In this document: piece after piece, positions 26,940 to 35,519 of the stretch | Numbering within the stretch: position 1 is the stretch's first letter | Layout of the letters: each line of letters begins with the position of its first letter | Source of the DNA: Eledone cirrhosa | Taxonomy: Eukaryota | Direction of reading: 5' to 3' | Length of the DNA stretch: 64,000 bases | Assembly (NCBI GenBank): GCA_964016885.1 | Contig: OZ024757.1 | Coordinates: 14,384,001-14,448,000, forward strand | Position numbers and translations under genes: made by a program | The notes under the pieces: model-generated | Databases searched by the model: none | The model's input: only the letters and a program-made list of their open reading frames with translations | Told to the model about the DNA's origin: nothing

Positions 26940-26948
26940 AGTTTTATA
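26940..26948 (-). CDS. MYO3: Candidate 9-nt microexon (TAT AAA ACT = YKT) in loop 2
   Basis: Long pyrimidine tract ...ctctcttcctatctgtttgtgtctttgacag|TATAAAACT|gtaagta; phase 0/0. Confidence 0.6.
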
Positions 26949-27437
26949 CTGTCAAAGACACAAACAGATAGGAAGAGAGAGAGGAAAAAACAGAAACAGA
27001 AAAAAAATACAGATTAACTTTTAAAGTAGCAATGGCATCCATTTATGACAAGCTGTTCACACATATAAACATATTTTTTAGCACAACTAGAGAGTATATA
27101 GAACATCCATCGATTTAGAGTCATTAACCTTAGAAATATGGAAATATATAAAAGATATATTGAAATAATCGAGCAATTGAAACCGTTTAAGACAATCTGT
27201 ACATCATCATCGTTTAACGTCTATCTTCCACGCTAGCATGGGCTTAGACATATATATATAACTATATGTGCATATATATATATATATATATATGTGCATA
27301 TATAAATTAATAAAAATAATGAATAAAAACAAAGAAACAGTTCCTTATATTAAAAAATTCATTATTTTACGATCGTTTCTAGGATATATATGTTTGTGTT
27401 GGTACCAACACAAACATATATATCCTAGAAACGATCG

Positions 27438-29480
27438 TATATATACATATACATATATATATATATATATATACATATACATATATATATATACATATAC
27501 ATATATATATACATATATATATACATATACATATATATATACATATATATATACATATACATATATATATACATATACATATACATATATATATACATAT
27601 ACATATATATATACATATACATATATATACATATACATATACATATATATACATATACATATATACATATACATATATACATATACATATATACATATAT
27701 ATATATACATATATATATATACATATATATATATACATATATATATATATATACATATACATATATATATATACATATACATATATATATATATATACAT
27801 ATATATATACATATATATATATATACATATACATATATATATACATATATATATATATATACATATACATATATATATACATATATATATACATATATAT
27901 ATATATACATATACATATATATATACATATATATATATATACATATACATATATATATACATATATATATATACACATATATATATACATATATATATAT
28001 ACATATACATATATATATACATATATATATATACATATATATATACATATATATATATATACATATATATATACATACATATATATATATACATATATAT
28101 ATACATACATATATACATATACATATATATATACATATATATATATATATACATATATATATACATATATATATATATATACATATACATATATATATAC
28201 ATATATATATATATATATACATATATATACATATATATATACATATATATATATACATATATATACACATATACATATATATATACATATATATATACAT
28301 ATATATATACATATACATATATATATACACATATATATACATATATATATACATATATATACACATATACATATACATATACATATATATATACACATAT
28401 ATATACATATATATATATATATACATATATATATACACATATATATACATATATATATACATATATATACACATATACATATACATATATATATACATAT
28501 ACATATATATATACACATATATATACATATATATATATACATATATATATACATATATATATATACATATATATATACATATATACATATATATACATAT
28601 ATATATACATATATATATATATATATACATATATACATATATATACATATATACACATATATACATATATATATATATATATATATATATACATATATAT
28701 ATATATATGTATATATATATATATGTATATATATATGTATATATATATATATGTATATATATATATATATGTATATATATATGTATATATATATATATGT
28801 ATATATATATATATATATATATATATATATATATGTATATATATATATATATATATATATATATATATATATATATGTATATGTATATATATATATATAT
28901 ATGTATATATATATGTATATGTATATATATATATATGTATATATATATATATATGTATATATATATATATGTATATATATATATGTATATATATATATGT
29001 ATATATATATATGTATATATGTATATATATATATATGTATGTATATATATATATGTATATATATATGTACATATATATATATATACATATATATATATAT
29101 ACATATATACATATATATATAAATATATACATATATATATACATACATATATATATATATACATATATTGATATATATATACATATATACATATACATAT
29201 ATACATATATTTATATATACATATATATATACATACATACATATATTTATATATACATATATATATACATACATATATATATTTATATATACATATATAT
29301 ATACATACATATATATATATATACATATATTGATATATATACATATATACATATACACATATATATATACATATACATATATATATATATATATACATAT
29401 ATATATATATACATATACATATATATATATATACATATACATATATACATATACATATACATATACATATATATATATAT
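27438..29480. repeat. About 2 kb (TA)n/(CATATA)n microsatellite with an internally inverted block (about 28700-29070)
   Basis: Switches from CATATA to TATATG and back. Confidence 0.95.
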
Positions 29481-31234
29481 CATCATCATCGTTTAACGTC
29501 CACTTTCCACGCTAGCATGGGTTAGACGGCTATATATGTGCATATATATATATATATATGTGCATATATATAAATATATATATATGTGCATTTATATATA
29601 TATATATTTTTATATATCTATATCCAGGGAGTGTAATGCGGAGTTACTGTAGGTTCACGCAGGTGAGCACTCGATGTTTAGCTTCACGCCGGTATCGTGG
29701 TGTAGAGCTAGACAGAGTGTAGTATAATAATACAAGGACGAATGGTTACTCCTTCATTATGTTTATTCCTTGGTGACGCACATTTCCCTATTGATTACAG
29801 AATCAGGCTAGATCAATACAGATCAAATCTTGAGCTGATCAATAGCGAAACATGCATCAACAACCAATAAACGTAATAAAGGAGTAACCATTCAACCTTG
29901 TTTTATTATTTATATATATATATATATATATATATATATATGTGCATATAGCTGTCATCAAAATGTGTATATCACCCTCCCTCAGAGATCCGTTTATTGC
30001 TGTTGTTGTCGTTGTTGTTGTTGTTGTTGTTGCTGTTATCTTGACTGTAGCTGTCATCAAAATGTCTAATTCGCCCCCTCTCAGAAAGAAGTGTTTTTTT
30101 CTGCCAGCAGCATATCACAAAATCGAATTTCATCTGAGGATACCCTTCTCATAACAACAACAAATGCATGAATTACATCTTGATTGCATGGAGGAACCGT
30201 TGTAATAATTATTATGAATAAACGATTTAAGTAACATCAACATCTTTTTTAACGTTATTATTATACTGAATCTCCATTGTAACTACACACTACAAATCTT
30301 GAGAGCTTTCTCCTGCTTGCTCCTGTTTTTACCAAAACAATCACTTCAGAACATATATATATATATATGTATATATATATATATATATATATATATATAT
30401 ATATAATGTAGGAGGTGAGTTTTATTGTAGTACAATAAAGCAATGCAGATATCGGATAAGAAGTACTCTACAGTTTGTAGGACTGGAGTATACATAATAT
30501 ATAAGATCAAAAGATGTTTAAATGAGTTCCATGTATTTTATTATGTGCATTTCAAAAACAAATATCATCATGCAATAACATTTGTGTTTTCATCAGATAA
30601 AATAGGAGGACATGATATGAAGGTTAAAAACACTTGTGGATAGTGATTTAAAACTGCACTATCCACAAGTGTTTTTAACCTTCATATCATGTCCTCCTAT
30701 TTTATCTGATGAAAACACAAATGTTATTGCATGATGATATTTGTTTTTGAAATGCGCATAATAAAATACATGGAACTCATTTAACCATCTTTTGATCTTA
30801 TATATATATATATATATATATATATATATATATATATATATATATATATGTATGTAGGTATGTGTGTGTATTTATATAGAATAGCAACCACCTGTAACTG
30901 TATTTACACATTTACCTAACACACACACACACACACACACACATATATATGTATTATACATATATGCATAGATACATAATATATATGTATGTATCTATCT
31001 ATCTATATATATATATATATATATATATATATATATATACACATATGTGTATGTGTGTATGTATGCATGTATTATAATCTAATATACATATTTCTATGAA
31101 ACAATTCAAAAGAAAAAGAAAAGGAAATGTGCAATAAGAATTTAGGAGAACTGAACCATGCGCCTCTTGCTGACTGAGTTAAGTGTATAATCTCCCGCTA
31201 CATAAATGTGTCTTTAATCAGTTGCTCCTATTCC

Positions 31235-31726
31235 CACATCTAGGATCAGTGGCTTCTGTCCCTACATCTGGGATCAGTAGCTTCTGATCTCACATCTAAA
31301 ATCAGTAGCTTTTGATCTCACATCTGGGATCAGTGACTTCTGATCTCACATCTGGGATCAGTAGCTTCTGATCTCACATCTGGGATCAGTGACTTCTGAT
31401 CTCACATCTGGGATCAGTGACTTCTGATCTCACATCTGGGATCAGTGACTTCTGATCTCACATCTGGGATCAGTGACTTCTGATCTCACATCTAGGATCA
31501 GTGACTTCTGATCTCACATCAATGATCAGTGATTTCTGACCTTACATCTAGGATCAGGGGCTTCTGGTCTCACATCTGGGACCAATGACTTCTGATCTCA
31601 CATCTGGGATCTGTGACTTCTGCCTCTACATCTGGAATCAGTTGCTTCAGCTCCCTCATCTGGGATCAGTGGTTTCTTCTCCCACATCTAGCATTAATTA
31701 CTTCTGTTCCTACATCTGGGATCAGC
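31235..31726. repeat. 28-bp minisatellite
   Basis: Unit ctcacatctgggatcagtgacttctgat. Confidence 0.9.
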
Positions 31727-34620: not shown

Positions 34621-34770
34621 CATCTCATAAACATACACATTTGATAATGTGGTCCTGGGTTCACTATTTGTAAGAAAATAGTTGAGATGCTCGTGTCTGG
34701 ATTGCTTTTGATCATAGGTCGTCTGCTGAATCAGACATGAACGGATAGGGAATTCCAGTGGGCTGACATT
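34621..34770 (-). CDS. MYO3: Candidate 150-nt cassette exon in loop 2: NVSPLEFPIR...SNVYVYEM
   Basis: ccttcctccacag acceptor, ATG|gtaaga donor; 50 codons without a stop; phase 0/0; no homology support. Confidence 0.4.
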
Positions 34771-35302
34771 CTGTGGAGGAAGGACTGGGTGAACTGGTTG
34801 GTGTAAGGTTGAGGCAGTGTTGGACACAACATGAATGATATGAGGTAGAGTGGGGTAAGAAGTGATGGTGAATGAGTCGAATGTGCCTGAATGGAAGTGG
34901 CACAAGTCCAAACCAGCTCCAAAGAGCAACTTCCATTTTGTAGTTGCAGTAAAAAAAGGGGAGGGATGGAGGGAGGGAGAGAGAGAGAGAGGAAACTGCA
35001 CATCTGTGGGCCAGAGGCTGGAGTATGTCTGGGAGGGTCTTTATGAACTGGGGGCTGGGCTAAACAACAACAACAACTACAACTACTACATTGACGATTA
35101 TAAAGCATAAAAAGTAATAAAGAATCATGTAAACAAATAGATGTAAATATTTAAAAGATGACTATATATAACTTTATATATATACATACATGTATATATA
35201 TATCATCATCATCACATATATATATAGTTATAATGATGATGATGATTATATATGTATAATATATAAGAATATATATATATGTGTGTGTGTATATATATAT
35301 AC

Positions 35303-35411
35303 ACAGGGTGTCTCCCCAGAAATATATACACACATTGATTACCTTGTACAGGTAATATTTATTAGAATGCTGTTGTGTTGAAGTGTGTATACATTTTTTC
35401 GGGACACTTTA
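35303..35411. mobile_element. Small Tc1/mariner-like MITE
   Basis: cagggtgtc...gacacttt imperfect TIRs in a TA context. Confidence 0.4.
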
Positions 35412-35510
35412 TATATATACACACGTTATATTATTTGCAGGAATCAAGGAATGAAATCTATGGCGAGAGTAAAAGCAGCAAGTTTTGCAGTAAATGTTGC
35501 CAATACTTAC

Positions 35511-35519
35511 ATTCTCAAA
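35511..35519 (-). CDS. MYO3: Candidate 9-nt microexon (TTT GAG AAT = FEN) in loop 2
   Basis: tgtgtctggtttctgtttcag|TTTGAGAAT|gtaagta; phase 0/0. Confidence 0.6.

Follow-up and report, generated by a model that had tools for sequence, protein, structure and literature searches.

Three 9-nucleotide microexons, very likely used in combination, in the loop 2 intron of a myosin III gene of Eledone cirrhosa

In a stretch of 64,000 nucleotides (nt) of the genome of Eledone cirrhosa (assembly GCA_964016885.1, contig OZ024757.1, positions 14,384,001 to 14,448,000; hereafter the window), a myosin III gene harbors three units of 9 nt in the intron that interrupts loop 2, the actin-binding loop of the motor. 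Judging from the genomic sequence and the predicted proteins of relatives, these units are very likely microexons that are conserved in other coleoids and used combinatorially. They encode the tripeptides FEN, YED and YKT, after which they are named here (Table 1).

Three units of equal length and their use in coleoids

The intron is 14,958 nt long, lies in phase 0 between exons 36840-36749 and 21790-21669, and is split by the three units into segments of 1,229, 2,584, 5,969 and 5,149 nt. Each unit is preceded by a pyrimidine tract ending in CAG and followed by GTAAGTA, which is also the donor of six of the 27 constitutive exons of the gene. All eight combinations of the units are in frame and free of stops, so that the length (3–27 nt), the canonical splice sites and the preserved frame of a microexon were found in all three. 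An earlier note on this DNA had described three AG/9 nt/GTAAGTA units in a phase-0 intron of about 15 kb, with charge steps of −1, −2 and +1 and UGC repeats at the YED acceptor; all of this was recovered on the minus strand, the single coordinates given for the units being their 3′ ends.

The intron was searched with a strict pattern consisting of a pyrimidine-rich tract, YAG, 3–30 nt and GTRAGT. Three matches were obtained, all of 9 nt. In 1000 block shuffles, the mean number of matches of any length was 0.39 and at least three matches were reached in 1.9%, but three matches of one length never occurred (0/1000). Chance is thus excluded for the triple of equal-length units. The same pattern matched only once in the other introns (38 kb) and once on the antisense strand (64 kb), and YED was the best-scoring candidate of 3–30 nt on the minus strand of the window. 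No additional strict candidate was detected in the intron, and no other small insert was observed at this junction in the isoforms of Octopus sinensis.

These isoforms came from a protein search performed with the downstream exon, which returned 103 proteins, the top three (98% identity) being cephalopod clusters. The RefSeq set of O. sinensis comprises isoforms X1 to X13, all of which were seen among the 15 cluster members listed out of 17. The predicted proteins carry no insert (X8), FEN (X5), YED (X6), FEN and YED (X2), FEN and YKT (X3), YED and YKT (X4), or all three units (X1, X7, and X9 to X13). Seven of the eight combinations are therefore represented, YKT alone being the sole one missing, and the cassette is thus combinatorial rather than mutually exclusive. 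The three tripeptides are identical in E. cirrhosa and O. sinensis, whereas several residues of the flanking loop exon are not.

A model from Argonauta hians contains FEN and YED, and FEN was also found in two Logan proteins that cluster with a MYO3 record of Sepia pharaonis (decapodiform-like), in which the neighboring loop residues are clearly different. At the protein level, at which conservation was assessed, FEN thus spans the octopod–decapodiform split. Apart from E. cirrhosa itself, YED was recovered from two octopod genera and YKT from one. No insert was present in the records seen for O. vulgaris and O. bimaculoides. Among ten candidates examined for shorter cephalopod fragments with inserts, a single protein was retrieved, a model from O. 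bimaculoides that does not extend beyond the upstream exon. The predicted proteins of O. sinensis, Argonauta and the Logan collection bear out the microexons and the combinatorial use proposed in the earlier note, and we consider it almost certain that the three units are real combinatorial exons. The expectation that annotation would miss them did not hold, as the RefSeq annotation of O. sinensis has all three; they are lacking from the records seen for the two other Octopus species.

RNA contigs from four runs of one study were compared with positions 36360-37000 of the window. In three of the four runs, contigs continued through exon and intron. In the run labeled X4 (kind not on record), a contig of 792 nt matched 36841-36749 without differences, departed from the genomic sequence on both sides of the upstream exon, and stopped 9 letters past the donor. 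This is what a spliced transcript would give if its assembly forked behind a first 9-nt unit, and is a weak hint in favor of such splicing, a chance end being possible as well.

The host gene belongs to class III, as Pkinase, Myosin_head and IQ domains are all present in its orthologues. The 27 window exons match octopod myosin III mostly at 80–98% per exon, the kinase start lying outside the exons mapped, and no second close myosin III copy was seen in the genome, in which the remaining matches are 45–67% identical. By alignment, the insertion point falls within a stretch of 49 residues known as loop 2, where myosin VIIa (residues 633-642) and myosin X (588-604) have only a short loop. The site is located just ahead of the T-V-S-S-x-F segment of the motor, and the alignment gap relative to myosins VIIa and X brackets it. 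No myosin was matched in the PDB when the 40-residue exon was searched by itself.

Table 1. Positions of the myosin III gene, the exons flanking the loop 2 intron and the three candidate microexons in the window
Feature	Position	Strand	Description
Host myosin III gene, 27 mapped exons	727..57213	-	Kinase end, motor, IQ region, tail start; single open frame
Upstream constitutive exon	36749..36840	-	92 nt; N-terminal part of loop 2; ends ...PSNTR, phase 0
Microexon 1, FEN (Phe-Glu-Asn, charge -1), TTTGAGAAT	35519-35511	-	AG-free zone of 104 nt upstream
Microexon 2, YED (Tyr-Glu-Asp, charge -2), TATGAAGAT	32926-32918	-	UGC at -21 and -18
Microexon 3, YKT (Tyr-Lys-Thr, charge +1), TATAAAACT	26948-26940	-	CU-rich tract; AG-free zone of 67 nt
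Downstream constitutive exon	21669..21790	-	122 nt; end of loop 2 and the conserved motor segment after it

Loop charge, tyrosine motifs and inserts in other animals

The computed net charge of the loop is +5 without insert, +4 with FEN, +3 with YED, and +6 with YKT; it is +2 with FEN and YED, +5 with FEN and YKT, +4 with YED and YKT, and +3 with all three, for a computed loop length of 49 to 58 residues. Adding the 9-nt microexons singly or together would change both the charge and the length of loop 2. Acidic inserts would weaken the electrostatic contact of the loop with actin, much like autophosphorylation of the MYO3A motor in vertebrates, and splicing would set a cell-type-specific baseline of actin binding. 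By analogy with loop 2 inserts of myosin II and with negative charge added to MYO3A, which both alter the motor, graded tuning of actin binding is, on balance, the probable main function of the units. Inserts in loop 2 of non-muscle myosins IIA, IIB and IIC alter ATPase activity and motility, and changes in the charge or length of the loop modify actin affinity (excerpts of PMC10480317). In MYO3A, phosphorylation of the motor reduces actin affinity, and extra negative charge where the motor meets actin decreases both the affinity and the density of filopodia (excerpts of PMC13453034 and PMC6981383).

Several known systems resemble the one described here. In non-muscle myosins IIA2, IIB2 and IIC2, loop 2 likewise receives an insert from an optional exon; this insert is biased towards brain or neurons (PMC10480317, in the part available). 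These class II motors, however, use a single exon of 21–33 residues with a strong effect, whereas the myosin III gene has three exons of 3 residues giving up to eight graded forms. The MYO6 microexon HsaEX0041235 (Glu-Asp-Glu), also of 9 nt, adds acidic residues to the motor domain of a myosin and was proposed to tune kinetics (10.1101/2021.09.08.459463, excerpt). However, it is a single vertebrate unit in insert-1 near the nucleotide site, with a demonstrated retinal enrichment, and not in loop 2. In PTPRD, the adjacent microexons meA3 and meA6, one of them of 3 residues, combine into several loop forms (excerpt of PMC12598525); there, two units of unequal length contribute to an extracellular adhesion code, in contrast to three look-alike units in a motor. 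The phosphoregulation of class III myosins shares with the acidic units a negative charge at the actin interface, which in that case lowers affinity (excerpts of PMC6981383 and PMC13453034), but it is post-translational and reversible, whereas the change described here would be made by splicing. In the excerpted part of a 2019 review, the only class III splicing listed affects the myosin IIIb neck and tail, and loop 2 does not figure in it (PMC6981383).

The phosphosites of Limulus myosin III are reportedly located in loop 2, according to the title of a reference. Small inserts at the junction interrupted by the units were also found in other animals. An insert of the IY type, of 5–6 residues, was present at the equivalent junction in 12 of the 20 non-cephalopod mollusc genera examined, nine of which show forms with and without it. 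These inserts include IYSAL, IYGAL, IYGKL, IYNKL, IYLNAL and IYGRLF, and Mytilus has an additional 12-residue option at the junction. In Danio, Myo3b has an optional insert of 7 residues, SPKYLLK, at the equivalent place (present in 8 and absent from 7 of the 15 listed records), with basic equivalents in catfishes. The fish Myo3b insert (proteins P0080, P0192-P0205, P0092, P0222 and P0225) begins with S-P-K/R, S-P being a proline-directed kinase site, and adds +2 to +4, a sign opposite to that of FEN and YED. No insert variation was seen in Lingula (4 records), Owenia (2) and Erpetoichthys (2). The mollusc and fish exon boundaries are putative, having been deduced from protein forms with and without the insert.

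Several observations weigh against tuning by combinatorial microexons. With its 49 residues, the loop is long to begin with, and it varies between species, so that 3–9 extra residues may matter little; moreover, charge is not what molluscs keep, since IYxxL-type inserts carry 0 to +1 and fish inserts are basic (+2 to +4). Support for YKT comes from one other species only, YED and YKT were observed in octopods alone, and the XP_ and GAB records that support the units are predictions. No read or cDNA junction with a 9-mer was seen for E. cirrhosa in the RNA compared over 36360-37000. The UGC motif accompanies YED only, and four of the 27 constitutive exons have one too. Finally, a softer splice-site matrix ranks the units only 1, 6 and 11 among 5090 candidates, and at least three candidates of any length reach a similar score in 17.5% of 200 shuffles. 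Splice-site strength alone is thus not decisive, and it is the homologous proteins that settle the matter.

The mollusc inserts are nearly uncharged and share with YED and YKT a tyrosine followed by a hydrophobic residue three positions on. For this reason, we considered that the exons may be real but serve to create a tyrosine docking motif (Y-x-x-hydrophobic) in a disordered loop, for a kinase or SH2 protein or for a sorting adaptor, the charge being a side effect. YxxPhi is an adaptor motif and pYxxM an SH2 motif, and the Tyr and Thr residues brought in by the units are, as the earlier note proposed, candidate phosphosites. The first Met of the downstream exon yields YEDM or YKTM after YED or YKT in six of the seven insert-bearing combinations, and Y-x-x-L occurs in 11 of the 12 mollusc genera with an IY insert, versus five such motifs in 778 residues of constitutive loop. 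However, a single ancestral exon is the probable source of the mollusc inserts, which hence are not independent cases, and FEN, the most widely seen unit, has Phe in place of Tyr and yields no such motif. Neither IYLNAL of Haliotis nor the fish inserts conform to it. We therefore regard a docking function as unlikely.

Slightly less likely again, the exons may be real and yet almost neutral: in a loop that is long and tolerant, with a large phase-0 intron, small in-frame exons could arise and persist with no particular function. In agreement with this, the inserts at the junction vary in length and sequence between lineages, Lingula (4/4 records) and Owenia (2/2) do without length variation, and the form without insert exists in O. 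sinensis and is the sole form seen for two other Octopus species. However, FEN is identical in octopods and in the decapodiform-like record despite the divergence of the neighboring loop residues, and IYxxL is kept in bivalves and gastropods. The identity of FEN and the retention of IYxxL point to selection.

Origin of the units and control of their splicing

Whatever the loop forms do, the three units resemble one another. Pairwise comparison of the 9-mers gives 17 matches in 27 positions, a likeness unexpected when set against in-frame 9-mers of the gene (p 0.0005), AT-rich 9-mers (p 0.006) or shuffles (p 0.003), and the codons of the units are one step apart along TTT/TAT, GAG/GAA/AAA and GAT/AAT/ACT. 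No such likeness was found in the flanks: upstream, 15–19 of 37 positions are shared, versus 13.2 ± 3.3 (maximum 24) for unrelated exons, and downstream, 9–16 of 40, versus 12.5 ± 3.1. The duplicated cassette envisaged in the earlier note thus finds support in the 9-mers but not in their flanks. As a flank signal would be lost in old copies, its absence is compatible with an old duplication, and an old serial duplication of the units is plausible.

Equal length, phase and donor, together with the shared positions of the 9-mers (p 0.003–0.006), could also be those of mutually exclusive duplicates, of which one would be used per transcript, as the earlier note had suggested. This is very improbable: two or three units occur in 10 of the 13 O. 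sinensis models and in the Argonauta model, every combination is in frame, and the 2,584 and 5,969 nt between the units (introns of 2.6 and 6.0 kb) leave no steric block. Just as improbable are chance pseudo-exons or artifacts of automatic annotation, for which the predicted nature of the supporting records, the unexceptional softer score and the lack of a direct junction in E. cirrhosa could be invoked, but against which stand the three identical tripeptides in identical order in the annotation of another species, the occurrence of FEN in records of three sources (RefSeq, a GenBank annotation and Logan), and the absence of the triple from 1000 shuffles.

Combinatorial inclusion raises the matter of control. 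In flies, the eMIC code comprises a long AG-exclusion zone, UGC near the acceptor and long CU-rich tracts (excerpt of 10.1101/2021.02.24.432780). In the E. cirrhosa intron, UGC near the acceptor is found for YED only (at −21 and −18), with none within 80 nt for FEN and YKT. The AG-free zones measure 104 nt for FEN, 27 nt for YED and 67 nt for YKT, versus a constitutive median of 40 nt, and the pyrimidine fractions are 0.75, 0.65 and 0.84, respectively, versus a constitutive median of 0.61. The units resemble in part the neural microexons that depend on eMIC and Srrm234, namely in their size (3–27 nt), in keeping the frame, in the long pyrimidine tracts and AG-free zones of FEN and YKT, in the UGC near the YED acceptor, and in the presence of an eMIC-like domain in the genome. 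They differ in that UGC is missing at two of the three acceptors, and in their long flanking introns, unlike those of fly targets.

The eMIC-like domain was detected as a match to SRRM_C (PF15230) on G000:C22 of the species' own genome, with 29.3 bits for a Pfam cut-off of 27. A plausible next exon, located through a sequence motif, lies about 21 kb further on. The two exons (G000:C22, ~28167880-28146300, minus strand; L002 and L005) together plausibly look like the eMIC domain of a Srrm234 gene. Control by eMIC of at least YED has, on these sequence features, about an even chance, and FEN, YED and YKT may be regulated separately. As a weaker suggestion, inclusion would be biased towards neural or photoreceptor cells, aided by the eMIC domain of Srrm234. 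No cephalopod expression data for the host myosin III gene were found in the literature; ninaC is listed in a scallop eye transcriptome (PMC3726758, in the part available).

Other features of the locus and significance for class III myosins

Other features of the gene were noted. Codon 2 of the downstream exon is AGC (Ser; window 21787, minus strand), and Gly is found at this position in every other coleoid record seen; the difference may have arisen in this lineage, or the codon may be one in which adenosine-to-inosine editing would yield Gly. In the tail, the final 27 nt of an exon (window 11316-11290, minus strand) start with GT after CAG, forming an apparent alternative donor, and isoform X7 of O. 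sinensis is without exactly the nine residues encoded there, VGRTPYYDA, an optional Tyr-bearing segment. Three repeats were observed in the loop 2 intron: a 56-nt tandem repeat of 9.7 copies (window 35626-36174) that ends just upstream of the FEN pyrimidine tract; a near-perfect inverted repeat between YED and YKT (window ~30500-30800), with arms of roughly 140 nt by eye, which is probably a small mobile element and could fold in the pre-mRNA; and an AT/GT-type microsatellite tract of roughly 2 kb upstream of YKT (window ~27430-29600).

No description of microexons in myosin III loop 2, or of these octopus exons, was found in the open literature, subscription papers and bioRxiv supplements being outside the search. 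The word "myosin" is absent from the main text of a bioRxiv paper on tissue splicing (10.64898/2026.09.05.749416), the supplements of which could list the exons, and PMC12240821 makes no mention of myosin. The cassette is thus already part of one public annotation, that of O. sinensis in RefSeq, yet apparently undiscussed. Splicing of loop 2, microexons in motors, and adjacent combinatorial microexons are each known already; since these parts are known and the exons are in RefSeq, the surprise is moderate.

A broader scenario, which we consider unlikely, is that the loop 2 intron of myosin III has been a splice switch since early molluscs, perhaps since early bilaterians in view of the fish insert. 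Coleoids would have duplicated it into a three-bit code, with loop charges from +2 to +6 and YEDM or YKTM motifs, from which photoreceptors and neurons would choose motors by actin grip and partners.

The charge and length of loop 2 are a classic control of myosin–actin binding, usually studied by engineered swaps. Here, a natural gene apparently offers up to eight graded versions of the loop, and thus a test series for small charge steps in a class III motor. The finding also draws attention to an apparently undiscussed optional insert at the corresponding position in the myosin III genes of other molluscs and in zebrafish Myo3b, which is easily testable in a model animal.

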